DNA of 63,853 nt, counting the filler. It is 4 parts of 4 records of this genome, joined end to end, with 100 filler letters (N's around TTAATTAATTAA, not from the genome) between each part and the next. Parts side by side here need not be neighbours in the genome. Positions count along the whole stretch, not along the records: positions 1 to 25,144 come from DRR723986_6991; 3 more parts are not named here. One strand, given 5' to 3'. Below, in pieces: positions 1-60,849 of this stretch. The translations under genes and the position numbers were made by a program. Every line of letters starts with the position of its first letter. The stretch's first letter is position 1. The notes below the pieces were generated by a model, which was not told the origin of the DNA, searched no databases, and saw nothing but the letters and a program-made list of their open reading frames with translations.

Positions 1-1410
1 GGTCGGCGTCGCCAGACCCATGGCGCAGGGACAGGCAATGATCAGAACCGACACGCCCGCCACAAGCGCATGGGACAGCGCCGGCGAGGGCCCCAGCAAG
101 AGCCAGGTCAGCACCGTCACCAGGGCCAACGCCATGACCGCCGGAACGAACCAGAGCGTGATGCGATCCACAATTCCCTGGATCGGCAGCTTGGCACCTT
201 GTGCCTCTTCCACCATCCGGATGATCTGGGCGAGCGTTGTATCCGTCCCGACGCGAAGGGCACGAAACTGAAAGCTGCTGGCTCCGTTGACGGTGCCTCC
301 GGTCACCGGGTCGCCCTCTGCTTTCTCGACCGGAACAGGTTCACCGGTGATCATGCTTTCATCGACACGGGCGCTGCCTTGGGTCACTTCCCCATCCACC
401 GCGACGCGTTCTCCGGGGCGGACGACCAGAATATCGCCGACGCCGATCCGGTCGATGGCGACGTCCATCGGCTCTCCGTCCACCAGGATCCGCGCGCTGC
501 TTGGCTGGAGACCCAGCAGATTCTGGATTGCGGCACCGGTACGGCCCTTGGCGCGCGCCTCCATCCATCGCCCCAAAAGGATCAGTACGACGATGACGGC
601 CGCCGCCTCGAAGTAGACCGCGCGGGACGCTTCGGGCAGAAGCGACGGCGCGAACAATGCGGTGAGTGAATAGAGATAGGCCGCGCCAGTGCCGACAGCC
701 ACGAGGCTGTTCATGTCAGGCGCGCCTTTCAGCAACGCGGAAAAGCCCTTGGTGTAGAAATGCCGACCGGGCCAGACCAGAACGACGGTCGTCAGGACGA
801 ACTGGATCATCCAGCTGGTCTGGTGGCCGATCGTGCGACCGATCAGGTCATGCATGCCCGGCACCAGATGTGCGCCCATTTCCAGCAGGAAAACCGGCAG
901 CGCAAGGGCTGCCGCAAAGGCCGTCTTGCGGGCGAATGCTCGGGCTTCGTCCTGCTTGCGGGTGCCGCGATCCTCGGAAGACGTGTCGCCAGTTGCCTCC
1001 GCCGGGTAGCCGGCCTCTTCGGCCGCCTTCAGCAGATCGGCCATATCAAGCGATCCATCGGCAAAATCGACGGTTGCCGTTTCTGACGCGAGATTGACAT
1101 TGACGTCCAGGACTCCGGGCACCGATGAAAGGGCTTTCTGCACACGACCCACGCAGGAGGCACAGGACATGGAGGAAATGTTCAGCCGCACCGATTGGGT
1201 TCTGGCGGGATAGCTCGCCTGGCTCAACGCCTCGACCACTTCGCCGATCCGGGATCTGGAATCGACCTGCGCCTGCGCCGTTTCGGTCGCGAGGTTCACA
1301 TTCACCTCGGTAACGCCGGGCAGGGCTGAGAGCGCTCGTTGGACCCTGCCAACGCAAGACGCGCACGACATATTCTGGACCGAGATTCGCAGGCTTTGAG
1401 AGCTTTGCAT
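1..1410 (-). CDS. copA: Cu(I)-translocating P1B-type ATPase, N-terminal part (runs off window start)
   Basis: Not in the ORF track; hand-translated from ATG at 1410: [23 protein letters not shown], a second MSCASC HMA domain, [17 protein letters not shown], and [14 protein letters not shown] at the window edge. Confidence 0.95.
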
Positions 1411-1437
1411 CGCTTATTCCTTATTCATCCCGGATGA

Positions 1438-1468
1438 CACCTAGGGCCTCCCCTTACTGGAAGGTCAA
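1438..1468 (-). promoter_or_regulatory. CueR/MerR-type promoter-operator for copA
   Basis: Minus strand TTGACC-19 nt-TAGGTG with dyad ACCTTCC-N7-GGAGG. Confidence 0.75.
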
Positions 1469-1486
1469 CAGCTTCAGAAATTTTTC

Positions 1487-1517
1487 TTGACCTTCCTTCG
1501 CGGGAAGCACCCATCCT
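1487..1517 (+). promoter_or_regulatory. CueR/MerR-type promoter-operator for copZ
   Basis: TTGACC-19 nt-CATCCT with CTTCC...GGAAG dyad in the spacer. Confidence 0.75.
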
Positions 1518-1542
1518 GAGCGTCACAATCAAGGAGAGACCA

Positions 1543-1749
1543 ATGAGCAATTTCACTGTCCCAGACATGAGCTGCGGGCATTGCACCGCTGCCATCGAAA
1601 AGGCCATCAAAGCGATAGACCCGTCTGCAACTGTTGTGTGCGTGCTTGCAACAAAATCCGTGTCTGTGGAGAGCAATCTGAGCGAACCGGCTGTGTCCGA
1701 AGCAATCCGCAGCGCGGGGTTTAATGTGTCCTCTCTTTCAGAAACCTGA
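1543..1749 (+). CDS. copZ: CopZ-like copper chaperone (HMA domain)
   Basis: MSCGHC motif, 68 aa, AGGAG RBS, divergent from copA. Confidence 0.9.
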   Translation: MSNFTVPDMSCGHCTAAIEKAIKAIDPSATVVCVLATKSVSVESNLSEPAVSEAIRSAGFNVSSLSET

Positions 1750-2249
1750 ATCTTTCCGGGGCTGAAGTATCCTGTGTCAGCTGTTCGGAGGAACAGGTCT
1801 GCATGGTCCATGACCCTAGACCTGACGGGCACATTGTGGTGCGGGAAGACTGGGTGTAGTCCTGAACTCCTCCTGCCCCACTTGGAGCTTCACCGGTTTG
1901 CGTAGGAAACGCAACGTCGACAAGATGACGGTGTCGCCGCATCGCGATTTTCCTTTGCCGAGCGCATCGCATCAGCGCCGGATCAAGACTTGCAGTTGAT
2001 GTCCGCCCTGCCCCCTCGCAATTCCTTCCGTGGGCACGTGTGCTCGCCGAGGATGACAGGCGACGGACGGATCGCGCGCAACCATGGAAGTGACGATCGC
2101 GCGGGCATCCTCATCAGAGTTTTGTCTCGTTATGTAACGGTCTCTCCATTTGCGACCTGCTGATACAAGGCGCCGAGTGCTTGGCATTCCATCAATAAAA
2201 TCACGTGCCATATAGGTCTTATCGCAACAGCGGATATGAGGTTTTCCAA

Positions 2250-2840
2250 ATGAAACGCACTACTCTCCTTGCAGCAATCGCGGTGACAACAGCCGCCGTT
2301 GGTGGAGCAGCCCTCGCGGATGCCAATCATGGTCACGGCGGCCAGGCAGATGTCACGCAGGTGTCGGGCCCGATGCAGAACAGTGGTCCCGGCATGATGG
2401 GGATGATGGGTGGCATGGACGGCATGACGGACATGATGCGGCAAATGCATGGCGGCATGATGGGCGGCGGCATGATGGGCGGAATGGGCCCGATGGGTGG
2501 CTCCATGATGCAGACGTTCGACTCAGATGGCGACGGCACTGTGACGGCCGAGGAAATGCACGCCCGGTTGCAGGCGCAACTGGCCGAATACGACAGCGAC
2601 GGCGACGGCGCGCTCTCGATCGCGGAGTTCGAAACCCTTCACAGCGCCATGATCCGCGAGATGATGGTGGACCGGTTCCAACATCTGGACGCCGATGGTG
2701 ATGGATCGGTCACGTCGGAAGAAATGGCGGCACCGGCCGTCATGATGGAACGCGCGCAAATGATGCGCAATCGTATGATGGCCGCACAGCCCGAGATGGG
2801 CGCGGACATGAGCGACGGCAATATGATGAATGACAACTGA
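2250..2840 (+). CDS. Exported Met/Gly-rich EF-hand protein
   Basis: Signal peptide MKRTTLLAAIAV...ALA, HGHGG, Met-Gly tract, three DxDGDGxxxxxE loops. Confidence 0.85.
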   Translation: MKRTTLLAAIAVTTAAVGGAALADANHGHGGQADVTQVSGPMQNSGPGMMGMMGGMDGMTDMMRQMHGGMMGGGMMGGMGPMGGSMMQTFDSDGDGTVTAEEMHARLQAQLAEYDSDGDGALSIAEFETLHSAMIREMMVDRFQHLDADGDGSVTSEEMAAPAVMMERAQMMRNRMMAAQPEMGADMSDGNMMNDN

Positions 2841-2897
2841 GCGATCGGTGCCGGCGCAGCGTCGGCACCGCATCCTTTCGGTTTTATGGAGGCTTTC

Positions 2898-2993
2898 ATG
2901 ATGGGTTTCGGCATGGGCGGAATCTGGATGCTGCTCCTCATCGTCTTCCTGGTGTTGGGGATTCTCGCATTCGTCAAATATCTGTCCAAGTGA
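2898..2993 (+). CDS. 31-aa single-pass membrane microprotein
   Basis: GGAGG at 2888-2892, then MMGFGMGGIWMLLLIVFLVLGILAFVKYLSK*; below the ORF-track cutoff. Confidence 0.7.
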   Translation: MMGFGMGGIWMLLLIVFLVLGILAFVKYLSK

Positions 2994-3010
2994 ACGAAAG
3001 GAGATTGGGA

Positions 3011-3397
3011 ATGGCATATACCTATGATCGCATTCTGAATGGCACCGACATCGACGACGCGGAAATGCGCATTCGCGCGGCCCTTGCCGACATGGGCTTC
3101 GGCGTCCTGACTGAAATCGACGTCAAGGCAACGATGAAAAAGAAGATCGACGTCGAAATGGCACCCTACCGCATCCTCGGGGCCTGTAATCCTGGTATGG
3201 CAAACAAGGCCATCGGGATCGAGCCGCGCGTGGGCGCGATGCTGCCCTGCAACGTGATCCTTCGCCAGGTGGATGGCGGCACCGAGATCAGTGCCATTGA
3301 CCCAGTCGCATCAATGCTGGCCATCGACAACCAGCAGCTCCACGAGGTCGCGGGCGAGGTTCGAGACTTGCTTCGCAAAGCGGTCGATGACGCATGA
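3011..3397 (+). CDS. DUF302 domain protein
   Basis: GFGVLTEIDVKATMKKK...YRILGACNP...GAMLPCNV signature. Confidence 0.9.
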   Translation: MAYTYDRILNGTDIDDAEMRIRAALADMGFGVLTEIDVKATMKKKIDVEMAPYRILGACNPGMANKAIGIEPRVGAMLPCNVILRQVDGGTEISAIDPVASMLAIDNQQLHEVAGEVRDLLRKAVDDA

Positions 3398-4112
3398 TCG
3401 CACTGTGTCCGGCAAGAGGCCGCGATTGGCAAATTGGTCGATCTCCCGCAGGATCACCAAGGCAGCCATAGCGGCGCTTCTGGTCGTGGCTCTTGCGATC
3501 CTGTTCATCGGGCCGTTTGCGGGTGTGATCGAGCGTATCGACGGCATCCGGATATCCGGATGGGTGGAGGCCGCAGGGCTATGGGGTCCGATGCTTGTCA
3601 TCGCCCTGATGACGGTCGCGATCGTCGCCACACCAATCCCGAGCGCACCGATCGCATTGGCGGCGGGGGCGGCCTACGGACATACATTGGGAACCGTCTA
3701 CATCGCAGCCGGAGCCGAACTGGGCGCACTTGCCGCATTCGCACTGGCGCGATTTCTTGGCCGCGACGCTCTCGTTCACTGGCTCGGTGAAAAGGTAGAC
3801 GCGGGCTGGCTGGGATCGCAGAACGCCTTGACACTCACGGTCTTCGTCAGCCGGTTGCTGCCGTTCATTTCCTTCGACTTCGTCAGCTACGCGGCTGGGC
3901 TGAGCAGGCTGCACTTTTTGCGGTTTGCAGTCGCGACACTCGCCGGAATCATCCCCGCGAGCTTCGTTCTTGCCCATTTCGGCAACGAAGCGGTCAGCGG
4001 GAGTACATCCCGCGCCACCTGGGCCGCCATAGGGTTGGGGGTTCTGACGCTGACGCCCCTTGTTGTCGTGGCCGTGCGGGACTTGCGAAGACATCGGGTG
4101 CGCCATGACTGA
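3387..4112 (+). CDS. TVP38/TMEM64 (DedA/VTT) family membrane protein; start uncertain
   Basis: PIPSAPIALAAGAAYG and RLLPFISFDFVSYAAG motifs. Confidence 0.85.
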   Translation: MTHDRTVSGKRPRLANWSISRRITKAAIAALLVVALAILFIGPFAGVIERIDGIRISGWVEAAGLWGPMLVIALMTVAIVATPIPSAPIALAAGAAYGHTLGTVYIAAGAELGALAAFALARFLGRDALVHWLGEKVDAGWLGSQNALTLTVFVSRLLPFISFDFVSYAAGLSRLHFLRFAVATLAGIIPASFVLAHFGNEAVSGSTSRATWAAIGLGVLTLTPLVVVAVRDLRRHRVRHD

Positions 4113-4235
4113 TCGCCGCGCCCCGGTGCGGCCCCCGCCCGATCTTTCGAGCGCCGTCAGATCGACAAGTAGAACGCGCCATCCGGCGATCGCTGACGGC
4201 TTTCAAGCCAATCCGTTGTTTGAGGGAACCCGGCC

Positions 4236-5159
4236 ATGCTGACCGCCGCCATACCATTTCCGGACATAAGCCACGCGCTGTTCTCGATCGAGATCGGCAG
4301 CTTCACCTTTGCGCTTCGCTGGTACGCGCTTGCCTATATCGTCGGCCTGTTGATCGGTTGGCGTCTCTGCGTCATGGCGGTCAGCCGTCCGGCACTGTGG
4401 TCCGGGGCCGGTGCGCCGCTGGACCGCCGCCAGATCGAGGATCTTCTGACCTGGATCGTTCTGGGCGTCATCCTCGGGGGGCGGCTCGGGTTCGTGCTGT
4501 TCTACCAGCCGGAATACTACCTGGCCAATCCGCTGGAGATACTGAAGATCTGGCAGGGCGGCATGTCCTTCCATGGCGGTTTCCTTGGCGTTGCCACCGC
4601 GGGGCTGGTCTTCAGCCTTCGCCACAAGGCACCGATGCTCAGCGTGGCCGACCTGCTTGCGCTGGCGACCCCGCCGGGGCTGTTTCTTGGGCGGCTCGCG
4701 AACTTCATCAACAATGAGCTCTGGGGCCGGCCCACAGGCGTTCCTTGGGCCGTGATCTTTCCGGGGGACGCCGCGCAGGATTGTCTCGGCGTCGTTTCCA
4801 TTTGCGCCCGCCATCCCTCGCAGATTTACGAGGCGCTGCTTGAAGGCCTGCTTCTTGGCACCGTTCTGACCTACCTCGCTTGGCGGCGCGGTTGGTTGAG
4901 GATGCCGGGAGCGCTGACCGGGACATTCCTGGTCGGATACGGCGCTGCCAGAAGTTTCGTAGAGCTGTTCCGCCAGCCGGATGCGCAATTCGTAGTCCCC
5001 GGAAATCCGGTCGGTCACGCGATCCATTTCGGCGATTGGGGTCTGACGATGGGGCAGGTGCTGTCCGCACCCATGATCCTGATCGGGCTGGCCTTGATAC
5101 TGCACACGTTCAGACAATCACGAACTGCGATCAAGCAGGACGCCGGCTTTGTCGGCTGA
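4236..5159 (+). CDS. lgt: Prolipoprotein diacylglyceryl transferase
   Basis: [44 protein letters not shown]. Confidence 0.95.
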
Positions 5160-5191
5160 CTGAATTTGGTCACGGAAGGGAGGAAACAGGA

Positions 5192-5812
5192 ATGTGCAAC
5201 GATATGAAAGGGAGTGATTGCGGACCATCGACCGAGACCGCGTTGATTGAGGGGCGTGATGCGTTCCTTGGCTTTCTTGTCAAACGCCTCGGCAACAGGG
5301 TTGAGGCCGAAGATGTGTTTCAGGACTTCTGCATTCGGGTTCTGGCCCACAAGGATCAGCTGCGTAATGTCGAACGGATGGACGCCTGGCTCTATGCCAT
5401 TTTACGTTCGGCACTGAACGATCACTATCGCAAGGCCGCGCGGCGACGGCATGTTGTGGAGGCAATGGCGGCCGAGCCTGCGGACTGGGCTGAGGATGCA
5501 GCCGGTCTGCTATCGCAACCATGCCGCTGTTCCGAGGGCCTGCTCTCCGAATTGCGGCCGGCCGACGCCGATCTGATCCAGCGGATCGACCTGCAAGAGG
5601 ACGACCGTGCCTCTGTCGCTGCTGACATGGGGCTGAGGCGCGGCACCTTGGCTGTGCGGCTGCATCGCGCACGCTCCGCCCTGAAGGACAGTTTGCTAAG
5701 CCATTGCGGGACCTGTTGCGAGACGGATCGTGATGACTGCTACTGCCCGCCTGCCCGATGCGAGACTCCCGGGCAGCATTCGAATTGCAGGGAGGACGCC
5801 GCCGTGATGTGA
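5192..5812 (+). CDS. ECF sigma factor with CxC linker and C-terminal Cys-rich domain (CorE-like)
   Basis: Sigma2 AEDVFQD...AWLYAILR, PCRC linker, sigma4 AVRLHRARSALK, tail HCGTCCETDRDDCYCPPARC. Confidence 0.85.
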   Translation: MCNDMKGSDCGPSTETALIEGRDAFLGFLVKRLGNRVEAEDVFQDFCIRVLAHKDQLRNVERMDAWLYAILRSALNDHYRKAARRRHVVEAMAAEPADWAEDAAGLLSQPCRCSEGLLSELRPADADLIQRIDLQEDDRASVAADMGLRRGTLAVRLHRARSALKDSLLSHCGTCCETDRDDCYCPPARCETPGQHSNCREDAAVM

Positions 5813-5829
5813 GCCGGGAGGCCTTTTCT

Positions 5830-5857
5830 TGTAATGATCCCGAGAGCTCGGCGTCTA
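5830..5857 (+). promoter_or_regulatory. Putative ECF-type promoter
   Basis: TGTAAT-N16-CGTCTA, 18 nt after the sigma gene stop and upstream of the DUF5676 operon. Confidence 0.55.
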
Positions 5858-6022
5858 CAGTTTGGAATCTGAAGCATTGGGGGCGGCCACGACGCATGAG
5901 AAACACAGACAGGCCGAGCTTAAGGTCCAGTCAGGGCGTTCCGACCGCGACCAATGACCGAGCTTCGGGGCACAAGATCAGGAGGCTTCACAACGCCACC
6001 GCGCACAACAAGGAGAATTGAC

Positions 6023-6388
6023 ATGATCGCAATCATCTATTTTGCCGTCCTCGCGGCGATCCTGTTTGTGGCCCTTCGCTTCATCTGTGGTGACTGCGTG
6101 ATGGGAAAGTCCGGACCCGAAGGGGCGGTGCGCATTCCGCTGGTGGCCCTTGGTTGGGCGCTAAGCCTCTTTCTGGCCCTGACATTCCTGATCTGCGTGG
6201 CGTTCGACCTGATGTTTCCCGGCTATGCAATGAATGAGATCTGGGCAGGGTTGCTGCCAGGCTTTGTCTGGCTGACGCCCGCAGGGTTCGTGATCGGCCT
6301 TGTCGAGACCTTCCTCTACGGCTGGTATGTTGCCCTGATCTTCGGAGGCCTGTTCAACACCATTGCAAATCGCGGGAGGGTGGCATGA
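6023..6388 (+). CDS. DUF5676-like membrane protein
   Basis: AGGAG RBS; GWALSLF...LLPGFVWLT...GLVETFLYGWY pattern. Confidence 0.75.
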   Translation: MIAIIYFAVLAAILFVALRFICGDCVMGKSGPEGAVRIPLVALGWALSLFLALTFLICVAFDLMFPGYAMNEIWAGLLPGFVWLTPAGFVIGLVETFLYGWYVALIFGGLFNTIANRGRVA

Positions 6389-7767
6389 CACGCTTCAACC
6401 GTCCCTCGCTGCGGTTTCTCGGTGCCGCCGGAACTGTCACCGGATCGCGCTACCTTCTGGAGATCGGCCGGCGGCGCATTCTGGTCGATTGCGGCCTGTT
6501 CCAGGGCTTCAAGCAGCTGCGCGCGCGAAACCGGAAACCCTTCCCGGCGCGGCCCTCCACCATCGACACGGTTTTGCTGACGCATGCGCATCTGGACCAT
6601 TCCGGCTACCTTCCCGCATTGATCCGGGCCAGTTATGGTGGTCGCGTCATCTGCACCCGTGCCACGGCCGAGCTGTGCGGTCTGATCCTGCCGGACAGCG
6701 GCCACATACAGGAAGAGGAGGCACGCTTTGCCGCGCGCCGGGGGTTCTCCAAGCACAAGAACCCGAAACCGCTTTACACGCTGAAGGACGCCGAGGCGGC
6801 GCTTGATCGGTTCGATACCGTGGACTTCGGGCAAAGGGTCGATCTGGGCGACGGTATCACCGCGACCTTCATTCCGGCAGGGCACCTTCTGGGCGCAGCA
6901 CAAATCCGGATCGGGGTCGGCGGAAACGTCATCCATTTCAGCGGCGATCTGGGACATGATCCGGACCCGCTGATGCGTCCGCCCGAGCCCTTTGCCGGTG
7001 CCGATGTTCTTGTCTGCGAATCCACCTATGGCAACCGCGCCCATCCTGACATCGACGCAGAGGCGGAACTGACACCTATCTTGAAACGGGTCTTCGCACG
7101 GGGGGGAACGGTCTTGATCCCGTCTTTCGCTGTCGGCCGTGCCCAGGGGTTGATGTTGCACATTTCGCGGCTGATTGGACGCGGCGAGATTCCCTATGTC
7201 CCGGTCTTTCTCAACAGCCCCATGTCGGTCGACGCCACCGAGATCTACCACCGGCACCATGACGAACATCATGTCAGCTGGGAAGAGTGCTTGGCGATGT
7301 TCGAGGTGGCCAAGCGGGTGAACACCGTCGAGCAGTCCAAGAACCTGAACACCCGCCAGGGGCCGATGATCATCATCTCGGCAAGCGGCATGCTGACCGG
7401 CGGGCGCATCCTGCATCATCTGGTCAGTTTTGGAGGGGATCGCCGCAATGCGATCCTCCTGTCGGGCTTTCAGGCCGGTGGCACGCGTGGTGCCGCTTTG
7501 GCCGATGGTGCGCGTCGTCTACGGATGTTTGGCCACGAATACCCCATCGAGGCCGAGGTCGTGCAGCTTCAGTCGTTTTCTGGCCATGCCGACGCCGAAG
7601 AGATCCTGCGCTGGATGTCGGCCGGTCCGGCATCGCGCATGACTTACGTGACACATGGCGAGCCTTCGGCATCCGATGCCCTGCGCTTCCGCATCGACCA
7701 TGAACTCGGGCGACCGGCCCGCGCGCCCGAGCATCTGGAAACCGTGTATCTGGACCGTCCGCGATGA
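6385..7767 (+). CDS. MBL-fold beta-CASP ribonuclease family protein
   Basis: THAHLDHSG, AGHLLG, SGDLG, ESTYG, SGHAD, THGE motifs. Confidence 0.93.
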   Translation: MTRFNRPSLRFLGAAGTVTGSRYLLEIGRRRILVDCGLFQGFKQLRARNRKPFPARPSTIDTVLLTHAHLDHSGYLPALIRASYGGRVICTRATAELCGLILPDSGHIQEEEARFAARRGFSKHKNPKPLYTLKDAEAALDRFDTVDFGQRVDLGDGITATFIPAGHLLGAAQIRIGVGGNVIHFSGDLGHDPDPLMRPPEPFAGADVLVCESTYGNRAHPDIDAEAELTPILKRVFARGGTVLIPSFAVGRAQGLMLHISRLIGRGEIPYVPVFLNSPMSVDATEIYHRHHDEHHVSWEECLAMFEVAKRVNTVEQSKNLNTRQGPMIIISASGMLTGGRILHHLVSFGGDRRNAILLSGFQAGGTRGAALADGARRLRMFGHEYPIEAEVVQLQSFSGHADAEEILRWMSAGPASRMTYVTHGEPSASDALRFRIDHELGRPARAPEHLETVYLDRPR

Positions 7768-9272
7768 CCGATACACTCGCACTCGTCCGCTCCGGGATAG
7801 ACACCTACCGCCAACCGGTCATCTACATGCACGAAGACTGCCACATCTGCCGTTCGGAAGGGTTCGCCGCCGAGACCCGAATTCGCGTTGACCTGCGCGA
7901 CCGCTGGATCATTGCCACGCTGAACGTGGTCGCGCGCGGTGCATGGCTGGCCGCGGAGGAGGCTGCGCTGTCGGTTTCGGCATGGCAGGCGCTCAAGGCG
8001 CAAGCTGGCGACCGGGCAGGTTTTTCGCATCCCGAGCCGCCTGTTTCGTCGTCAATAATCCGGGCCAAAGTCTATGGGGAGCGTTTGCGGCGAAAAGATT
8101 TTGCCGCGATCATTCGCGATACGCTCGACAACCGTCTCTCGGATCTCGAACTCGCCGCCTTCATCACTGCCAGAGCCGGAAACCGTCTTGACGAGCGGGA
8201 GACGGTCGCCCTGACCCGCGAAATGCAGGCTGCGGGCGAAACGCTTGACTGGGGTGGCCAGACCGTCCTGGACAAGCATTGTGTCGGCGGGCTGCCGGGC
8301 AACCGGACAACCCCGATCGTCGTCGCCATCATTGCCGCAGCCGGGCATCTGATCCCCAAGACGTCGAGCCGGGCGATTACTTCCCCCGCCGGGACCGCAG
8401 ACACGATGGAGGTCATGGCACCTGTGGCGCTGGACGCTGCAGCGCTGCGCAAGGTGGTCGAAGCGGAAGGCGGTTGCGTGGTCTGGGGCGGCGGACTGAA
8501 CCTCAGCCCCGCTGACGATCACTTCATCCGCATCGAGCGGCCGTTGGATTTCGACAGCGTCGGACAATTGGTCGCCAGCGTCCTGTCAAAGAAGGCGGCT
8601 GTCGGTGCAACCGACGTGTTGATCGATGTGCCGGTCGGGCCAACGGCCAAGGTGCGCTCGGCGCAGGCCGCGGCGGCCCTGGGATCCCGCCTGAGCGCGG
8701 TCGGTCAGGCTATCGGGCTGCGCGTCGCGCTTCACGAAAGCGATGGCACGGCCCCGGTCGGGCGCGGCATTGGCCCTGCGCTTGAAGCGGCGGATGTTCT
8801 GGCGGTGCTCCGGCGTGCTCCGGCTGCGCCGACGGATTTGCACGAACGAGCCCTGGACCTTGCGGGTCGGCTGCTCGACCTAGCACCGGGTGCATCTGGC
8901 AAGACAGGCAGGGCGCGGGCAGAGAAAATGCTCGACAGTGGCGCGGCAGAAGCGAAATTCCTGGCGATCTGCGCCGCACAGGGTGGATTCCGCGAACCTG
9001 GTGAAGCGCCGCGCCGCACTGAGATGCTGGCCTCGGCGGCAGGATATATAACCGCCATCGACAACCGTTTGATTGCTCGCATCGCAAAGCTTGCCGGCGC
9101 ACCGCGCCAGCAACGGGCGGGTGTGCGTCTTCTGGTGCGGGTCGGGGAACGAGTGGAGAAAAGTCAGCCGCTTTATGAAATCCACGCCGAGACGACCGGC
9201 GAACTGGCCTATGCGCGCGCATATGCCGAAGCCCATGTCCGCGCGCTCAAACTGTCGGAGGATACGGCATGA
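7764..9272 (+). CDS. Thymidine phosphorylase family, AMP-phosphorylase-like subfamily
   Basis: DKHCVGGLPGNRTT, PKTSSRAITSPAGTAD, long N-terminal extension with CHIC. Confidence 0.9.
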   Translation: MTDTLALVRSGIDTYRQPVIYMHEDCHICRSEGFAAETRIRVDLRDRWIIATLNVVARGAWLAAEEAALSVSAWQALKAQAGDRAGFSHPEPPVSSSIIRAKVYGERLRRKDFAAIIRDTLDNRLSDLELAAFITARAGNRLDERETVALTREMQAAGETLDWGGQTVLDKHCVGGLPGNRTTPIVVAIIAAAGHLIPKTSSRAITSPAGTADTMEVMAPVALDAAALRKVVEAEGGCVVWGGGLNLSPADDHFIRIERPLDFDSVGQLVASVLSKKAAVGATDVLIDVPVGPTAKVRSAQAAAALGSRLSAVGQAIGLRVALHESDGTAPVGRGIGPALEAADVLAVLRRAPAAPTDLHERALDLAGRLLDLAPGASGKTGRARAEKMLDSGAAEAKFLAICAAQGGFREPGEAPRRTEMLASAAGYITAIDNRLIARIAKLAGAPRQQRAGVRLLVRVGERVEKSQPLYEIHAETTGELAYARAYAEAHVRALKLSEDTA

Positions 9273-10216
9273 TCCTTGTTCCGTTCCCGGAAATGAAAAC
9301 TCTCGCGCGATCGCTCGCGCCTGCATTGGATGCAGATCTCTGTCCGCTCGACTGGCATCGCTTCCCCGACGGTGAAAGCCTGATGACCTTGCCGGACGAC
9401 ATGAGAGATGCCGATGTCGCGATACTGGCGACGCTTCGTGATCCTGACCGCCTGGCCCTGCCGCTGCGGTTCGCCGCACAGACGGCCCGAGAGCTGGGGG
9501 CCCGGAATGTCGGCCTGATCGCGCCCTATCTGGGATACATGCGACAAGACCGGCGCTTTCGCGATGGACAGGCCGTCAGCGCGAAGCTGTTCGCCGGATT
9601 TCTCGCCGAGAGTTTTGACTGGCTGGTGACGGTCGATCCCCATCTGCACCGCATTGCGCGGTTGGAGGATATCTTCTCAATCCCGGCCGAGCGTGTCGCG
9701 TCCGCCCCGCTTCTCGCCAAGTGGATCCGTACAAATCTGCCCGATGCCATACTCTTGGGACCTGACAGCGAAAGTCAGCAATGGGTTGCTGAAGTGGCCC
9801 GGCTTGCCGCACGGCCATACGAAGTCTTGCGAAAGATCAGGACCGGTGATCACGAGGTCGATATCAGCGTGCCGGAGAGCGCCGCTCTGCTTGAGGGCAC
9901 TCCGGTGATACTGGATGACATCGCGTCTTCCGGCAGGACGATGGCGCGCGCTGTCGAACAATTGCTTGCAGCCGGAACCGGTTCGCCGGTCTGTCTGGCG
10001 ATCCACGCGGTCTTTGCGGAAGGGGCCCATGACGTCATCATGTCGGCCGGGGCCGCACGGATCGTTACCACCGACACCATACCACACCCCTCCAATGCGA
10101 TCGGAACCGCCGCTGTGCTTGCCAAGTCACTTCGGTCATTTGTGTCGAGTCTTGACCTTCCAGCAAGTGGAAGGACTAGGTTGACACCGACTTGCTCCGA
10201 TAGGAATTCCCAATGA
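9269..10216 (+). CDS. prs: Ribose-phosphate diphosphokinase family protein
   Basis: [35 protein letters not shown] loop. Confidence 0.88.
10152..10182 (+). promoter_or_regulatory. CueR promoter-operator for the second ATPase, inside the prs 3' end
   Basis: TTGACC-19 nt-TAGGTT with ACCTTCC-N7-GGAAGG dyad. Confidence 0.85.
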
Positions 10217-12576
10217 CCGATCACACTCATCAATCCGCGCCCGAAACCGACATCTATGTTTGCCCGATGCACCCCGAGGTGCGGCAGAACGGTCCGGGCG
10301 ATTGCCCGAAATGCGGGATGCACCTTGTGCCGGAATCGGAGGCCGGTGCCCATGCAGGGCACGATCATCACGGGCATGAGCACCACGGGCACGACCACCA
10401 GTCAAGCGCAGCCCCGGCAGACGGCAGGTATGATACGGTCCCCGCCGAATATGACGGGGCCGTCTATACCTGTCCGATGCATCCGCAGGTTCGCCAGGTC
10501 GAACATGGCTCCTGCCCGATCTGCGGTATGGGGCTGGAGCTTGAGTCCGGCATCCCGGTGGAGGACGGCCCGAACCCCGAACTGGTAGATTTCACGCAGC
10601 GCTTCTGGGTTGGCTCGGTCCTGACCATCCCGCTTCTGATCCTCACCATGGGTCCCTATCTCGGCTTTCCCGGAGTGCGCGAGATATTCGGTGAGCGGGC
10701 AACCCTCTGGATCGAGCTGGTTCTCGGAACCCCAGTTGTCCTTTGGTGCGGCTGGCCGTTTCTGGTTCGGGGCTGGAATTCGTTCAAGACGATGAACCTC
10801 AACATGTTCTCCCTGATCGGCATGGGCGTGATGGCGGCCTGGCTATTCAGCGTCGTCGCTGTTCTCTCACCCGGCATATTCCCCGACGGGTTTCGCGACG
10901 CCGAAGGGCATGTCGGCGTCTATTTCGAGGCGGCGGCGGTGATCGTGACGCTGGTGCTGCTCGGCCAGGTGATGGAACTGCGCGCCCGTGAAGGAACCGG
11001 CAAGGCAATCCGCGCGCTGCTGGACATGGCGGCCAAGACCGCGCGGGTGATCCGGGACGATGGCTCCGAAGAAGAGATCCCGCTGGAGGATGTGCAAGTC
11101 GGCGACCGTCTGCGCGTGCGGCCCGGCGACAAGGTGCCGGTCGATGGCGTGGTTCTGGATGGCCGGTCCTCGGTCGACGAAAGCATGATCTCGGGTGAAC
11201 CCGTGCCGGTCGAGAAGACCGAGGGCGACCCGCTGACCGGTGCCACGATCAACGGCACCGGCAGCCTGGTGATGGAGGCGACGCGAGTCGGGTCCGACAC
11301 GATGCTGTCGCAGATCGTCGAGATGGTTTCGAACGCGCAACGCTCGCGGGCCCCGATCCAGAAATATGCCGACAAGGTGGCGGGTTTTTTCGTTCCGGCC
11401 GTGATCGGTATCGCGGTCCTGTCCTTCATTGCGTGGGCGATTTGGGGGCCAACACCGGCGCTGTCCTACGCCCTGATTTCGGCGGTGGCGGTTCTGATCA
11501 TCGCCTGTCCCTGTGCGCTCGGCCTTGCGACACCGATGTCGATCATGACGGCGACTGGGCGAGGCGCGCAGGCCGGGGTTCTGATCAAGAACGCCGAGGC
11601 GCTGGAGCGGTTTGAGAAGGTCGATACCCTTATTGTCGACAAGACGGGGACGCTGACGATGGGCAAGCCACAGCTTGTCGCCGTCCTCCCCGAGCCCGGT
11701 CACGACGAGGCCGAGGTTCTGCGTCTTGCCGCGTCGCTGGAACGCGGATCGGAGCACCCTCTGGCCGAAGCGATCGTGCGCGGCGCGGAGGAGCGTGACG
11801 TAAAAATGGCCAATGCCGACGATTTCGAGGCGGTTACCGGCAAGGGTGTCAAGGGTGTCGTGGACGGCCAGGCGGTCGCGCTCGGCAACCTGGCGATGAT
11901 CCGCGAACTGGGGCTGGAGGCGGGCGAGTTGACCGCCAAGGCCAATGACCGCCGCGACGAGGGCGAGACAGTGATGTTCGTGGTGCTGGATGGCGAGATC
12001 GCCGGTCTTGTCGCGGTCGCCGACCCGGTGAAGGAAACCACCCCCGCCGCGATCAAGGACCTGCACGAACTGGGGTTCCGCGTCATCATGGCGACCGGTG
12101 ACAACGAGCGCACCGCCAAGGCGATCGGCGCGCGGCTCGGCATCGATGAGATACGGGCCGATGTGCTGCCCGAGGACAAGGCGCGGATCATCAAGGAATT
12201 GCAGGCCGAGGGCCACAAGGTCGCCATGGCCGGCGATGGCGTGAACGATGCGCCCGCGCTGGCGCAGGCCGATGTCGGCATCGCCATGGGCACCGGCGCC
12301 GATGTGGCCATCGAAAGTGCGGGCATCACGCTGGTCAAGGGCAACCTCGACGGGATCGTGCGGGCGCGTCGGCTAGCGCGGGCCACAATGCGCAACATCC
12401 GCCAGAACCTGTTCTTTGCGCTGATCTACAATGCCTCCGGCGTGCCGGTCGCGGCGGGCGTTCTGTTTCCCTTCTTCGGCATCCTCATCAGTCCGATGTT
12501 TGCTGCCTTTGCAATGAGCGCCTCATCGATCTCAGTGGTGCTCAATTCACTGCGCCTTCGCGGCGCAAAGGTCTAG
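10213..12576 (+). CDS. Cu/Ag-translocating P1B-type ATPase (CopA/SilP-like)
   Basis: Two YxCPMHP...CPxCGM domains, His-rich linker, [20 protein letters not shown]. Confidence 0.96.
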
Positions 12577-12591
12577 AAATGGAAGACCAAC

Positions 12592-12855
12592 ATGAACAAT
12601 CACTCTGATCCGGCCAACGCCAATTGCGACCCGTCGGAATCACCTTCCCATACGCCGTCCTTTTGGCGGTCGCGTGCAGGCATCTACCTGATCGTTGCAC
12701 TGGTCGTCGGCGGTCTTCTGTTGGGCTACGAGCACCGCGTCCACATCCTTGGTAGCAATTGGCTCATTTGGCTGCCGCTACTGCTCTGCGTGGGCATGCA
12801 CTTCTTCATGCATGGGGGCCACGGCGGACATGGCGGAGGAGGAAATAGGACATGA
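12592..12855 (+). CDS. DUF2933-like small membrane protein
   Basis: EHRVH and LLLCVGMHFFMHGGHGGH. Confidence 0.8.
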   Translation: MNNHSDPANANCDPSESPSHTPSFWRSRAGIYLIVALVVGGLLLGYEHRVHILGSNWLIWLPLLLCVGMHFFMHGGHGGHGGGGNRT

Positions 12856-13508
12856 CCGATCCCGGAACCGCCTATGGCCTTTGGCTTCTGGTTTTCATCA
12901 ACTCCGCCGTCTTCATCATGTTTGCCTTCAGCTTCTTCAAGCCACAGACGTCAAGGGACTGGCGGAGTTTCGGGGCATTCAGCGCCTTCATCGTGGCCCT
13001 ATTCACCGAAATGTACGGGTTTCCCCTGACCATCTTCTTTCTGTCCGGCTGGCTTCAGTCAACCTGGCCAGATATCGACTGGTTTGCGCATGACAGCGGA
13101 CATCTACCTGAAATGATGTTCGGCTGGCAATCGAACCCTCATTTCGGCCCCTTCCATATCCTGAGTTTCGCCCTAATCGGAGGCGGTTTCTGGCTGATCT
13201 CTGTGGCTTGGCACCATCTGTGGTCGGCGCAAAGGCAAGGGCGGCTGGCCACGACAGGCCCTTATTCACACATTCGACACCCACAATATATGGGCTTCGT
13301 GGTGATCATGGCGGGCTTTCTCGTGCAATGGCCAACGCTGCTGACGCTTGCAATGTTCCCGGTGCTGGTCTGGATGTATGCACGTCTCGCCCGCGCCGAG
13401 GAGGCCGACAGCAAGTCGCGCTTCGGGGAAGCCTGGGATCGCTACGCCGAAACTGTTCCCGCATTCATTCCGCACCTGCGGTCGCGCCTGGTAAGCTCAA
13501 AAAGGTAA
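12852..13508 (+). CDS. Isoprenylcysteine carboxyl methyltransferase (ICMT/PEMT)-like membrane protein
   Basis: LATTGPYSHIRHPQY...EE...FGEAWDRY...VPAFIP; ALFTEMYGFP. Confidence 0.85.
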   Translation: MTDPGTAYGLWLLVFINSAVFIMFAFSFFKPQTSRDWRSFGAFSAFIVALFTEMYGFPLTIFFLSGWLQSTWPDIDWFAHDSGHLPEMMFGWQSNPHFGPFHILSFALIGGGFWLISVAWHHLWSAQRQGRLATTGPYSHIRHPQYMGFVVIMAGFLVQWPTLLTLAMFPVLVWMYARLARAEEADSKSRFGEAWDRYAETVPAFIPHLRSRLVSSKR

Positions 13509-13519
13509 CGGACAGAGGT

Positions 13520-14017
13520 ATGACAAGAACCAAGAAGAACGGAAACCCCGCGACAATGACCCGAAAGGCGATGGCGATTGCCTCCCTGTTCGCATTCGGA
13601 TTGGCAACTGGCCCATTGGCCCAGTCCGATGAGGAGGAAGCCGACCGACCAAGAGTCAACACCCAAATGCATGGCGACGCCGCCGGAGCGCCCGCACCCG
13701 ATCCAGATACCATCATCGTGCCGGAGACCCTGAGCGCGCCTTCATATTTTGGCCAGATCGCGTTCGAGCAAAACTGCGCATCGTGTCATGGTGAAAACGG
13801 AGCTGGCGGGACCGGCAACGGTCCGCCGCTGATCCATCCTATTTACGAACCTGGTCATCACACGGATGGGGCGTTCCTGCGGGCAGCGATGGCAGGCGTG
13901 CAGTCGCATCATTGGAATTTCGGCGATATGCCTGCTGTGGAAGGGGTCACGGAAGAAATGGTTGTATTGATCGTCAGCTACATCCGCGAATTGCAACGCG
14001 CCAACGGGATAGAATGA
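13520..14017 (+). CDS. Exported monoheme cytochrome c
   Basis: Signal-like N-terminus, CASCH, GPPL, HHWNFGDMP. Confidence 0.88.
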   Translation: MTRTKKNGNPATMTRKAMAIASLFAFGLATGPLAQSDEEEADRPRVNTQMHGDAAGAPAPDPDTIIVPETLSAPSYFGQIAFEQNCASCHGENGAGGTGNGPPLIHPIYEPGHHTDGAFLRAAMAGVQSHHWNFGDMPAVEGVTEEMVVLIVSYIRELQRANGIE

Positions 14018-15114
14018 TGGCAAGACGCCCCGACCCGCCGCCGGTGCAAGGAACCGTCGTGCTGATCGGTGGCACGGGCGATGTCGGCGGGCGACTGGTC
14101 CGGTTGCTGGTCGACCATACGGCAGCCCGCATACTGCTGGTTTCGCGCAGCGGTGTTGTGTCAGGTGATCGTGTCGAGGCGCTGCGGCTTGATATCGCCG
14201 GGAAGGACGCCGCTGGAAAGCTGCCGCCTGGCGCGACGGTGGTAAACCTAACCGAAGCTACGCCCCGATCGGTCGCGGCCGAAGTGGTCCGCAACGGCGG
14301 GAGTTTCCTCGAGACCTCGGCGTCCCCGGATTACCTGAAGGCGCTACGACAGGACGTTCTGGTCGCTGGAGGTACGGGCACCGCAATCCTCTGCGTCGGG
14401 GCCGCGCCCGGCCTCAGCACCTTGATGGCAGCCGAACTCCTGCGCGATACAGAGGCTGAAAAGGTCGACATCGGATTGGAACTCGGCATGGGCCGGCACT
14501 ATGGACAGGCCGCGACGGAATGGTCGATCGGTTCCCTCAGCTTCCCATATCGGCTGTCCGGTTCCGGAAACGCCTTTGTTGCGCCCGGAGCCCTCCGTCG
14601 CTCGTTTGCTTTCGGGCGGGGCTGTCGGGCGCGTCCAGCGCTTGGGATCGGCCTTGCAGTGGATGGTTTCGCGGATGGTTCGGGCAGCGGCCCCGCTGCC
14701 CTTGTCCGTACCTTCCTGGCGATCGATCCGCCTTTCGTGACGCGCGCTGTTGGACTGCTCTTACGGCTCGGTCTCGGTCCGGTGCTGTCGCGGCGCAAAC
14801 GCGGCGTGACGCGGGCCTTGAGGCGGCTGCCGGAACTGGGTCAGGCGCGCACCCGGATCGTTGTCGAGGTGCGGGATCCGGACGGCAGCGTCGTTGCCTC
14901 GCGTCATGTTTCTGCCGGCGATCAGGCCGAAGTGACGGCGGCGATGATCCTCGCCACGATCCGCGCATTGTCGGCGGCGGACAGGCCGATGCCCGGCCTG
15001 TCGTCCATCGTCGATCACCTGACATTTGCCGGGGCGCTGAACGATCTCCGCCTCCTCCTGCCGGGCATGGCAGTCGAGACCTGGTCGACCGGGCGAATTG
15101 GAGGAAAACCGTGA
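14014..15114 (+). CDS. Saccharopine-dehydrogenase-like NAD(P)-binding oxidoreductase
   Basis: GGTGDVG Rossmann motif, GAAPGLS; ATGA overlap with the cytochrome gene. Confidence 0.7.
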   Translation: MMARRPDPPPVQGTVVLIGGTGDVGGRLVRLLVDHTAARILLVSRSGVVSGDRVEALRLDIAGKDAAGKLPPGATVVNLTEATPRSVAAEVVRNGGSFLETSASPDYLKALRQDVLVAGGTGTAILCVGAAPGLSTLMAAELLRDTEAEKVDIGLELGMGRHYGQAATEWSIGSLSFPYRLSGSGNAFVAPGALRRSFAFGRGCRARPALGIGLAVDGFADGSGSGPAALVRTFLAIDPPFVTRAVGLLLRLGLGPVLSRRKRGVTRALRRLPELGQARTRIVVEVRDPDGSVVASRHVSAGDQAEVTAAMILATIRALSAADRPMPGLSSIVDHLTFAGALNDLRLLLPGMAVETWSTGRIGGKP

Positions 15115-17180
15115 ACCGCACCAGGAACGTCTTGCGGTTGGCCCGGATTGCTGTCGGCCTGGCGAAAGATGTCTGGACGCTCCGGCGATATGATCCGGCC
15201 AGCGGCGACACTGGTGCACCGGATCGGTTCGCGCAAAACCTGCTCGCACTGGGGCCGGTTTTCGTCAAGCTTGGCCAGATCCTCAGCACCCGCCCCGATA
15301 TTCTGCCCGAAAGCTATGTCGCGCGGCTTGCGGAATTGCAGGAGCGTGCGCCCCATGTGGATTTCGCCACGGTGCGGCGCATCGTCGAGGATGAGCTGGC
15401 AACGCCGCTTGAAACCGCCTTTGCCAGCTTCGAGGCCGAACCCGCCGCCGCCGCGTCCCTGGCCCAGGTACACAAGGCAAGCCTGGCGGATGGCACGGCG
15501 GTCGCGGTCAAGGTGCAGCGATCAGGGCTGGAGCCGCTGTTCCACCGCGATCTCGACGCGCTCGACCTTGGGCTGAGGATCGCGCGACTGGTGCTGCCGC
15601 GCCGTCTTCGGCGCACGAATTTGTCGGCGTTCCTCTCGGAGTTTCGGCGCTACTCGCTGGCCGAACTCGATTTTCGCGCCGAGGCGGCTGTCATGGACCG
15701 GTTTCGCGGGAACCTCGCCGGGCAGGACCGCATCCGAATTCCAAGACCCTATCCCGACCATGTGACAGCCCGCGTGCTGACCATGGATTGGGTCGATGGC
15801 CTGCGCCTGTCCGAGGTCTCGGCCGCCCTTCCCGAACAAACCCGGTCCGCACTGGTCGAGGCGCTTGTGTCGATGCTGCTGAAAATGTTCGTGTCGGACG
15901 GGCTGTTTCACGCAGACCTGCATCCCGGCAATATCGTCTTTCATGCCGACGGCACGGTGACACTGCTCGATTTCGGCATGTATGGTGAGCTGAACGCAGC
16001 GCAGCGCGACCGCTTCGTGCTGTACTGGATGGCCGTGGCACAGCGGCAGACCCGGCGCGCCTATCACCATTTCAGCGCGCAGACCGAAGCCCTTCCTGGC
16101 GCCGATCACGCGCTGTTCCGGCAAAAATTCGAGGGGCTTGCGGCAAAATTCTACGCGGCCCCGTCGCGCGAGGCCAGTCTTGCGCGAACCTATCTTGCAA
16201 TGATGCGCGCAGGCTACCGCGCCGGTTTCGTATTCCCTGCCTCCCTCATGCTCCATGCCAAGGCGCTGACCACTGCGGAGGCGCTGCTGTTCGTGCTGGC
16301 GCCCGACGCACGGTTCGACGATTTGTCGCGCCCGTTCATCGCGCGCGAGGTCGCCGCGCGTCTGGCATCCAGTGACCCCTTGGGGCGCCTTGCGCAGGTG
16401 CTTCCCGAGCTACTGCTTACAGGCGCCCTGCCGCCCGCCGAGGCGATTGACGAGACCTGGGACGATTCCGCAAGCCGCAAAATGGGGAGTGGAATCCTTG
16501 AGGCTGTCATCCCATCCGGCGAGGGAATTGGCCGTGCCGCGCTGACGAAGCTTTTTAGTCACGTCGCCCTGCGGCATCTGGGAAAGGAGACCGACTCGAT
16601 CCTCTCGGACAGCTGGGCGGGCTATGAAGGGCTTGAACGCGACCTTCCGCTGGAGCCGAACGCTGGCGCTATCCTGACAACGCATCTTGCCGCCCTGACG
16701 CTTGCGCTGCACCGAACGCTGGTCGCGCGAGGGCGGTCAGAGGCGCAGAGCCATGAGATCATCCATGCGATCGGATGGGACATCTACGATCGGATGGCCG
16801 ATCCGCCGTTCGAGATCGCCCGCGCCATCACCACCGATCCTACCAAGCGAATGCGCATCGCAACGGGCCTGTTTCGCCGTTTCCCCTTTGGACCACCGGC
16901 CTATGGCTGGCGCGACATCGAGGCGGGTGGCAACGTCGTCGCCTTCGACTGCACGAAATGCCCGGTGGCCGAGTTCTTCGCGGCCCATGAGGCCTCGTCG
17001 CTGTGCACAGCAACATGGTGCGCACTCGATTTCCCGGTGGCCGGAAAATGGGGTGGGCAATTGGTGCGTCCAAAGACCATTGCCGGGGGCCACGATCATT
17101 GTGATTTCAGGTGGCATACCTTGCCACTGTTGGACAAAAACGAAACCGGAGAGGCAGCTGAGGATGCAGGACAAGGATAG
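15111..17180 (+). CDS. ABC1/UbiB atypical kinase fused to a C-terminal ATC-hydrolase-like Cys domain
   Basis: GTG after GGAGG; FVKLGQ, AAASLAQVH, VAVKVQ, HADLHPGN, LDFG; C-terminal FDCTKCP...CALD...TIAGGHDHCDFRW. Confidence 0.85.
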   Translation: MNRTRNVLRLARIAVGLAKDVWTLRRYDPASGDTGAPDRFAQNLLALGPVFVKLGQILSTRPDILPESYVARLAELQERAPHVDFATVRRIVEDELATPLETAFASFEAEPAAAASLAQVHKASLADGTAVAVKVQRSGLEPLFHRDLDALDLGLRIARLVLPRRLRRTNLSAFLSEFRRYSLAELDFRAEAAVMDRFRGNLAGQDRIRIPRPYPDHVTARVLTMDWVDGLRLSEVSAALPEQTRSALVEALVSMLLKMFVSDGLFHADLHPGNIVFHADGTVTLLDFGMYGELNAAQRDRFVLYWMAVAQRQTRRAYHHFSAQTEALPGADHALFRQKFEGLAAKFYAAPSREASLARTYLAMMRAGYRAGFVFPASLMLHAKALTTAEALLFVLAPDARFDDLSRPFIAREVAARLASSDPLGRLAQVLPELLLTGALPPAEAIDETWDDSASRKMGSGILEAVIPSGEGIGRAALTKLFSHVALRHLGKETDSILSDSWAGYEGLERDLPLEPNAGAILTTHLAALTLALHRTLVARGRSEAQSHEIIHAIGWDIYDRMADPPFEIARAITTDPTKRMRIATGLFRRFPFGPPAYGWRDIEAGGNVVAFDCTKCPVAEFFAAHEASSLCTATWCALDFPVAGKWGGQLVRPKTIAGGHDHCDFRWHTLPLLDKNETGEAAEDAGQG

Positions 17181-57864: not shown

Positions 57865-57978
57865 CTGCGTCCAACACAAGTGGGAGCGTTCAAAATGGAG
57901 TGTTGGGGGAACAAAGAGGGGGGGGGGGGCAAAGGGGGGACAAGGGAAGGAGGGAGTTCGGGAGTTCATTTCGCTCAC
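57865..57978 (-). other. Spliceosomal intron (114 nt, phase 1)
   Basis: CCCA|GTGAGC ... GACGCAG|AC; splicing joins the two frames as FRQP-N-DLSAM. Confidence 0.8.
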
Positions 57979-60719: not shown

Positions 60720-60849
60720 CTGTTGTTGTTTTTTGTTTTAAAAACCACCCCCCCAAAAGGCATCATTGGTCAGCGTGAGCTCTCACCAAACAACACAACA
60801 ACCAAGCCCCGCCAAACAAACATGGGCTCTTTCGCACACGCACACTCAC
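60720..60849 (-). other. Spliceosomal intron (130 nt, phase 2)
   Basis: AAG|GTGAGT ... CTGAC ... AACAACAG|C; splicing restores SGYYRVTMGTTT-S-AVVWCDM. Confidence 0.88.

Follow-up and report, generated by a model that had tools for sequence, protein, structure and literature searches.

In the window, by which we mean the whole 63,853-nucleotide stretch of DNA analysed here, the gene for a cysteine-rich extracytoplasmic function (ECF) sigma factor is followed by four genes encoding a DUF5676 membrane protein, a beta-CASP nuclease, a homolog of archaeal AMP/nucleoside monophosphate (NMP) phosphorylase and a phosphoribosyl pyrophosphate (PRPP) synthase-like protein of family PRK07199 (PRS-like protein, gene prs). 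Our reading, to which we assign a probability of about 0.5, is that phosphorylase and PRS-like protein form a two-enzyme module of ribose-1,5-bisphosphate (R15P) metabolism that is often accompanied by the nuclease, belongs to bacterial islands for survival of energy failure (low oxygen), and is controlled by the sigma factor here. We regard the widespread module as real and the copy in the window as a regulatory variant under a CorE-like sigma factor instead of a low-oxygen regulator. Gene order, motifs, residues and co-occurrence are observed, and from them we infer every reaction as well as the signal. Below, nuclease, phosphorylase and prs genes together are called the trio. The features, all on the plus strand, are:

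5192..5812: CorE-like (ECF44/ECF238-type) ECF sigma gene, 206 aa, assigned by family scans and Cys pattern.
5830..5856: ECF-type promoter, -35 TGTAAT, N16 spacer, -10 CGTCT (pattern TGTAAY-N16-CGTC at 5830-5855), putative target of the adjacent sigma.
6023..6388: DUF5676 membrane protein gene, start at 6023 (27.5 bits against a cut-off of 27.6).
6385..7767: beta-CASP nuclease gene of the TTHA0252 type, metallo-beta-lactamase fold (Beta-Casp/RMMBL).
7764..9272: archaeal-type AMP/NMP phosphorylase homolog gene (TIGR02645/PRK04350).
9269..10216: PRK07199 PRS-like gene, a class III-like PRPP-synthase homolog, "prs" (366.5 bits against a cut-off of 322).

Open reading frame (ORF) coordinates and family scans agree on the four-gene run behind a Cys-rich ECF sigma, with Cu-ATPases on both sides, that the original prediction had described. 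The genes are joined by ATGA overlaps at 6385, 7764 and 9269, and a fourth overlap at 10213 couples prs translationally to copA2. The closest named locus is that of Nioella ostreopsis with 98% protein identity.

The phosphorylase scored above cut-off against TIGR02645 (552 bits, cut-off 434.6) and PRK04350 (633 bits) and below the cut-off of the AMP phosphorylase equivalog TIGR03327 (443.6 versus 535 bits), and it reached only 146 bits against true thymidine phosphorylase, TIGR02643. Its best PDB match was the AMP phosphorylase of T. kodakarensis (4GA4-6, E 2e-94), with thymidine and pyrimidine-nucleoside phosphorylases at E 1e-33 or weaker. G176, S202-S207, T211, D264, S272 and K296, kept in 48-49 of 49 homologs, are what we take to be the AMP-binding and catalytic positions (SRAITS phosphate-binding stretch, catalytic Asp, Ser and Lys), so that the window enzyme shares domain layout, sequence and all of these positions with the archaeal enzyme. 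PDB ranking and conserved positions both point to the AMP-phosphorylase-like identity proposed earlier. According to the accessible text of PMC8376864, archaeal AMP phosphorylase splits all NMPs into base and R15P, and family and residues make NMP + Pi -> base + R15P very probable as the predicted reaction here. The surroundings differ from the T. kodakarensis pentose bisphosphate pathway, as the partner here is the PRS-like protein or PhnN and no R15P isomerase or form III RuBisCO was found: R15P isomerase TIGR00511 was over cut-off in none of the 49 phosphorylase genomes of the sample described below, form III RuBisCO TIGR03326 in none of five genomes checked, and neither family in a profile search of the nearest genome (G001). 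Both are likewise missing among the window proteins scanned, as had been said of the contig.

To see how the module is distributed we used two samples, 401 Pseudomonadota genomes spread evenly over the phylum with about 9 kb taken on each side of all phosphorylase loci (random sample), and the best 80 of 306 close relatives of the window locus (close sample). TIGR02645 phosphorylase occurred in 49 of the 401 genomes at 51 places; about one in eight sampled proteobacterial species therefore carries this enzyme, which is annotated 'thymidine phosphorylase' and whose likely product has no known route. A PRS-like gene lies near it in 41 of the 51 random loci, a nuclease gene in 21, and a P1B ATPase within 9 kb in seven, the nearest genome being one of them. 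These counts make phosphorylase and PRS-like protein the core of the module, to which the nuclease is often added, and tie copper to one mobile sub-lineage; DUF5676, present in 40/80 close and 4/51 random loci, is accessory. Genes of low-oxygen island type (Usp, phosphoketolase, acetate kinase, PpsA, ADH, CBS-BON and others) accompany 22 of the 51 loci by a marker list drawn up post hoc and with no background control, as against the seven with a P1B ATPase, so that copper is not supported as the general setting of the trio. Phosphoketolase or acetate kinase lies within 9 kb in 7/51 random and 11/80 close loci. As a separate observation, the phosphorylase-PRS pair adjoins a second ATP synthase operon (N-ATPase-like) in two unrelated genomes (L120, L128).

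PRK07199 was found in 42 of the 401 genomes, 41 of which also carry the phosphorylase, and a separate housekeeping prs is present beside it in 5/5 genomes checked. The model of the PRS-like protein (pLDDT 95) superimposes on archaeal class III PRS with TM scores of 0.85-0.90 (0.90 for the Thermoplasma enzyme), the closest proteins being those of M. jannaschii (1U9Y), S. solfataricus (4TWB) and T. volcanium (3MBI/3LPN). The canonical PRS residues F32, D34, H125, D166, K189, R191, D216, D217 and T224 are kept; for E. coli PRS the accessible part of PMC9232217 gives F35, D37, H131, D170, D220, D221, T228 and a KxR motif as adenine, Mg, ribose 5-phosphate (R5P) and catalytic residues. The PRS-like protein thus shares fold, adenine/Mg/ribose-phosphate residues and catalytic Lys/Arg with archaeal class III PRS. 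It differs in the pyrophosphate loop, where the GG after D166 is replaced by E168/S169: the loop reads GPDSES-QW in the window, with W172 where canonical enzymes have Arg, and GPDxES-QW in the family against PDxGA/PDxGG in the archaeal enzymes. The Glu is present in 39/39 family rows, whereas the loop contains Gly in 6/6 housekeeping PRS rows and five PDB alignments; H127, R128, W172 and D194 are further invariants of the 39 rows, and ES..W recurs in 120 of 150 distant PRK07199 cluster representatives. A second difference from archaeal class III PRS is that PRK07199 invariably comes in addition to a housekeeping prs and lies next to the phosphorylase in nearly all cases.

We assume that the pyrophosphate loop of PRS contacts the terminal phosphate. 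In E. coli PRS, ADP and R5P are bound together in the active site and ADP inhibits (PMC9232217, accessible part). A Glu at the usual receiver of the terminal phosphate, together with an E. coli site that holds ADP and R5P, would fit PRS chemistry minus the gamma-phosphate, and our preferred, still tentative, assignment from these residues is R15P + AMP <-> R5P + ADP. By analogy with PhnN the protein might instead convert R15P to PRPP, a slightly weaker candidate that fits the fusion proteins described below better, and the active-site geometry less well, than the ADP/AMP reaction. We lean moderately towards the broader statement that the PRS-like protein is an outlet for R15P and not a spare ordinary PRPP synthase.

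The exchange of PRK07199 for PhnN bears on this statement. Eight phosphorylase genomes lack PRK07199; seven of them contain PhnN, and the eighth breaks off at the edge of a contig, as compared to PhnN in only 7 of the 41 others. Moreover, in 3 of the 51 random loci PhnN is fused N-terminally to the phosphorylase directly behind nadC (L156:8989-11046, L158:8311-10362, L159:8455-10257). Since PhnN is the bacterial R15P kinase and nadC a PRPP consumer, the fusion is independent evidence that the phosphorylase family makes R15P, and these loci may run from NMP via R15P to PRPP as a feed for NAD synthesis. The fusions resemble the window pair in joining the same phosphorylase family to an R15P-consuming partner, and differ from it in the partner's P-loop kinase fold (PRS fold here), in their confinement to one clade and in the missing nuclease and metal or low-oxygen island. 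Together with the 41/42 pairing and the missing R15P isomerase, the exchange suggests that the step after R15P is taken by a PRS homolog, as had been conjectured. We did not use as support the seven matches to phosphorylase-PRS fusion proteins, which come from one contig each and of which at least two are visibly frameshifted. The only one that looks deliberate is P0006, a 724-aa protein from a single contig, likewise not used as support, in which a PRS-like domain precedes a phosphorylase without N-domain in the layout of the PhnN fusions. A complex prediction for phosphorylase and PRS-like protein scored 0.00, which is evidence neither way.

The same data have to be read against a simpler scheme in which an ordinary, ADP-insensitive class III PRPP synthase works beside an NMP phosphorylase: stress would free bases, extra PRPP made from R5P would re-salvage them when the class I enzyme is inhibited, unrelated phosphatases or the reverse phosphorylase reaction would clear R15P, and sigma control would be kept. 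In its favour, the nearest structures and sequences belong to archaeal class III PRS enzymes that are active, no core catalytic residue is lost, and the E. coli enzyme is indeed inhibited by ADP (PMC9232217, accessible part). The scheme leaves R15P without a linked outlet, as R15P isomerase is missing from 49/49 genomes and PhnN was not found in 34 of 41, and it explains neither the family-wide Gly-to-Glu loop change nor the PhnN-for-PRS exchange. We consider it the strongest competitor, with roughly one chance in a few.

The nuclease is closest in structure to TTHA0252 of Thermus thermophilus (best PDB match 2DKF, E 4e-70), with metallo-beta-lactamase, beta-CASP and RMMBL domains present and all metal motifs intact (HAHLDH, H167, D188, H401, H424). 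The accessible text of PMC4229858 calls TTHA0252 an RNase with 5'-3' exo- and probably also endonucleolytic action; the difference is that the nuclease here is operon-linked to predicted NMP catabolism.

In the proposed mechanism the nuclease would release 5'-NMPs from RNA, the phosphorylase would convert NMP and Pi to base and R15P, and the PRS-like protein would remove R15P by R15P + AMP -> R5P + ADP, saving one phosphate bond, before R5P passes to fermentation by phosphoketolase and acetate kinase; in the reverse direction the pair would salvage bases for one high-energy bond. Expression would be driven by the adjacent sigma reading the ECF promoter here and by FixK2 in Bradyrhizobium, with copA2 co-transcribed by read-through in addition to using its own CueR promoter. 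In its most far-reaching form, which we put forward as a speculation with odds clearly against it, PRK07199 proteins are ADP/AMP-dependent R15P phosphotransferases and not PRPP synthases, forming with phosphorylase, nuclease, phosphoketolase and acetate kinase a RuBisCO-free bacterial bisphosphate pathway in which cells gain ATP by fermenting ribose from their own RNA, and a CorE-type sigma of marine Alphaproteobacteria has taken over these and other fermentative genes; if so, metal poisoning would be handled as a form of hypoxia in these bacteria. A loop change without exception in the family rows and a partner that swaps PRS for PhnN point to a possible new activity in the PRS fold and to a possible bacterial R15P pathway without RuBisCO.

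Control by the sigma factor was approached via its promoter. Taken alone, the motif at 5830-5855 is within chance, with one match in the window and 0.49 expected. In relatives, most loci with a sigma gene have the motif behind its stop codon, and in many loci it turns up again, with diverged spacers, some 315 bp ahead of DUF5676. In G105, which belongs to another family, it precedes a phosphoketolase-nuclease-phosphorylase operon and, separately, the displaced prs. Its retention with diverged spacers and before both halves of this split operon implies selection for sigma control. A sense-strand motif lies upstream of the trio in 34 of the 70 close loci with enough flank (ten short loci set aside), as compared to two matches in 1.31 Mb downstream. 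When 50 of the 80 close genomes were searched for the sigma gene, three short loci then being dropped, sigma was present in 17/18 motif-positive and 4/29 motif-negative genomes. The ECF-like promoter that had been noticed behind the sigma gene is hence kept and sigma-linked in relatives, and motif conservation and covariation in this lineage argue for the proposed sigma control of the operon; that the adjacent Cys-rich sigma reads the operon from this promoter in the Rhodobacteraceae island is, in our estimation, likely. As two or more paralogous sigmas occur in many close genomes, which of them reads the 5830 site is deduced from adjacency.

Exact motif matches in four whole genomes fall into islands in 16 of 22 cases; the nearest genome has two, one being the 5830 site. 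On a plasmid of Roseovarius sp. AK1035 (L184:2593-21110), which carries two divergent CorE-like sigmas, six copies head copA-yfcC-arcA-argF-arcC (arginine deiminase), CFA synthase-GAPDH II, a DMT transporter, the second sigma, DUF3141-fabI and the trio. Together these matches constitute a predicted regulon for alphaproteobacterial CorE-like sigmas. In most loci a small gene of no known family (cluster c20; L152:2128-2457) follows sigma behind the motif, and a DUF3141-fabI-Rieske-CBS block usually lies between sigma and DUF5676; both are absent in the window, so that the trio is the apparent sole target there.

The missing intervening genes can also be taken to mean that island rearrangement has brought the trio, a low-oxygen cargo, into metal islands, its links to sigma and copA being by-products with no shared physiology. 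Gene order around the trio indeed varies freely between loci, the phosphorylase was found on 114 plasmid records, and 36 of the 70 close loci lack the motif. A mere passenger would hardly keep the motif at its distance of about 315 bp with diverged spacers, or in front of both operon halves in G105, and we rate this account as quite improbable.

The signal read by the sigma factor was approached via its cysteines. Family scans gave a weak match to SigZ-like ECF factors. The linker CxC (C111, C113) is invariant in 11/11 rows, and the C-terminal Cys-rich domain contains C172, C175, C176, C183, C185, C190 and C199, of which C172, C175, C183 and C185 correspond to residues 181, 184, 192 and 194 of CorE with the same 3-8-2 spacing. 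We compared these features with CorE and CorE2 of Myxococcus xanthus (formerly ECF44, today placed in or next to ECF238; accessible parts of PMC3107203, PMC4937300, PMC7826278 and PMC8999054), with which the sigma shares the linker CxC, the four cysteines of the Cys-rich domain, a P1B ATPase nearby and a promoter with an AAY (AAC-type) -35 and a G in the -10 at 16-18 bases. In Myxococcus, the extra Cys174 of CorE2 sets the Cd/Zn response and Cys189 is needed for Cu activation of CorE (PMC4937300, accessible part). The sigma here has the CorE2-type extra Cys and lacks an equivalent of Cys189/Cys178: matched by spacing, with no direct alignment, C176 falls on position 185 of CorE, an Ala there, and R180 on Cys189, which differs from the copper-specific CorE subtype. 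The predicted targets differ as well, being mostly fermentation, nucleotide and lipid genes and not only metal export. Because the pattern is of the CorE2 type, copper as the signal is unproven, and the copper switch of the original prediction is not borne out by these positions. The sigma may sense a soft metal or thiol status; Cu and some other signal seem equally plausible to us, neither being favoured outright, with Cd/Zn marginally behind.

The interpretation that started from copper has the sigma activated by Cu and counts the trio among the copper-resistance genes. The sigma is CorE-like, prs is directly followed by copA in 58 of 76 close loci, the seven random loci with a P1B ATPase within 9 kb are well above our chance expectation, and CxxC motifs occur in DUF5676, as an N-terminal extension (window 6083-6100) typical of the island clade, and in the N-domain of the phosphorylase (window 7764-7860; 75/75 full-length close homologs, 15/50 random ones), possibly conferring thiol or metal sensitivity on the island clade. 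Against this stand C176 as the equivalent of the Cd/Zn-related Cys174 of CorE2, the Arg in place of CorE Cys189, the other motif targets, which are mostly fermentation or lipid genes, and the narrow distribution of the sigma gene, found in 6 of the 401 genomes (five of them with phosphorylase) as compared to 49 for the phosphorylase. The separate promoter of copA2 is a further point against it, and overall we find the interpretation unlikely.

The copper genes on both sides of the operon are:

1..1410, minus strand: 5' part of copA1, a Cu-type P1B ATPase gene cut by the window edge (family scan).
1438-1468, minus strand (copA1), and 1487-1517, plus strand (copZ): two divergent CueR/MerR-type promoters.
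10152..10182, plus strand: CueR/MerR-type promoter inside the prs frame, before copA2 (TTGACC, 19-bp spacer with an ACCTTCC-N7-GGAAGG dyad, TAGGTT).
10213..12576, plus strand: copA2, Cu-type P1B ATPase with two HMBD domains (family scan).

For the sites at 10152-10182, 1438-1468 and 1487-1517 we used what we take to be the CueR promoter consensus. Some 23 codons of the prs frame lie beyond the family domain; they span the promoter at 10152-10182, which the original prediction did not mention, and lead to the ATGA overlap (10152-10216), and the LDLP peptide encoded by this tail is the -35 box. With two mismatches allowed, a CueR-type promoter is found at the prs tail of 21 of the 79 close loci, its -35 box has decayed to different degrees in many close loci, and a cueR gene over cut-off lies just beyond copA1 in the nearest genome. 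With its own CueR-type promoter for copA2, copper export has a separate switch downstream of the trio. Scans with CusR- and CsoR-type consensus motifs gave nothing consistent. As observations on the copper genes in their own right, six Sphingomonadales-like loci (L065-L068, L072, L077) have a CsoR/RcnR-family repressor gene divergent from DUF5676-trio-copA, a third regulatory arrangement, and the copA2 unit contains, at window 14520-17180, an ABC1/UbiB-type kinase fused to a C-terminal ATC-hydrolase-like domain.

The link to low oxygen stems from Bradyrhizobium diazoefficiens, where bll3115-3117 are induced under microoxia at protein and RNA level (PMC6515984, accessible part) and drop 6.6-30.6-fold when fixK2 is mutated, a FixK2 box being present at -74 (PMC9104804, accessible part). 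One sampled locus (L111) matches Bradyrhizobium in gene order and in the box at -74, its proteins being 39-43% identical to those of the window. The bll3117-bll3116-bll3115 operon comprises the same three families and differs in its order phosphorylase-PRS-nuclease, in a FixK2 box instead of an ECF promoter, and in lacking DUF5676, sigma and copA. Hence the earlier statement that the cassette has no functional description is only partly right: its regulation is in print, and we found no biochemical study of it in the open-access literature, supplements excluded. An upstream FNR/FixK box as a general rule was rejected, as there was no enrichment over control promoters of the same loci; in the close loci FNR-type boxes precede the operon in 3/54 cases as compared to 30/327 control promoters, the best score for the window operon was 5.8 of 9, and strict boxes before the sigma gene were found in 2 of 20 close loci, 8 of the 20 being short of upstream DNA. 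The promoter results suggest that one set of survival genes on mobile islands is induced by metal stress through one regulator and by oxygen limitation through another.

Several points weigh against the reading of an R15P module of low-oxygen islands under sigma control. Nearly all canonical catalytic residues are kept in the PRS-like protein, which leaves room for ordinary PRPP-synthase activity, and no enzyme assay for a bacterial phosphorylase or a PRK07199 member was found in the open-access literature. The nominal P of 5e-5 for the complementarity of PhnN and PRK07199 overstates it, as the fusions are one clade and the rest two lineages and a broken gene, and PhnN occurs in 87 of the 401 genomes regardless. 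The catabolic direction is, in our rough estimate, uphill by +18 to +23 kJ/mol overall and presumably only marginally feasible in starved cells. A nuclease gene is missing in 30 of the 51 random loci, so RNA is not the obligatory source, and phosphoketolase and acetate kinase do not adjoin the trio in the window. FNR-type boxes are not enriched before the operon (9/47 versus 55/381 control promoters at score 7.5), and there are none in window 1-21000. Finally, derivation and counting of the promoter pattern used the same close loci, whose kinship makes them non-independent; the independent test is therefore the random sample, in which 8 of 9 motif matches in the 51 loci fall into four loci of sigma-bearing genomes.

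An anti-phage system that depletes nucleotides had also been considered, and an NMP-cleaving enzyme and a nuclease on mobile DNA, with BREX 10 kb away on one plasmid, would be in line with it. PADLOC models, however, matched 0/5 proteins, the neighbours are stress, fermentation and metal genes, regulation is by FixK2, and 50,697 phage records contained a single, unannotated match. Defence finds no support on these counts, and we hold it to be the least probable of all the alternatives by far.

Scans of the window for sigma-70 promoters and terminators gave no excess over shuffles, and an Rfam scan of window 1-21000 gave no match. Contigs from four estuary metatranscriptomes cover most of 1-14000, and some bridge gene junctions; we did not use them as expression evidence, as they may derive from DNA and depth cannot rank genes. 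Contigs at 2472-3265 are much deeper than their neighbours, which is not readable as an expression level. Upstream of the EF-hand gene, at window 2130-2250, lies a conserved block, GTC.C..ATGTAACGG...TTGCGACC, CACGTGCCATAT, which is common to L001-L003 and probably the site of a two-component regulator.

Two regions of the window lie further from the operon. Window 23251-48775 holds partial domains (RND permease, ketol-acid reductoisomerase C-terminus, Fe-ADH C-terminus, FolE2), and its GC content swings between 0.51 and 0.71, which suggests a patchwork assembly beyond the island. Window 55727-63851 contains three long high-GC ORFs on the minus strand, two of which encode laminin-G/concanavalin domains and collagen-like repeats, unlike the remaining window.

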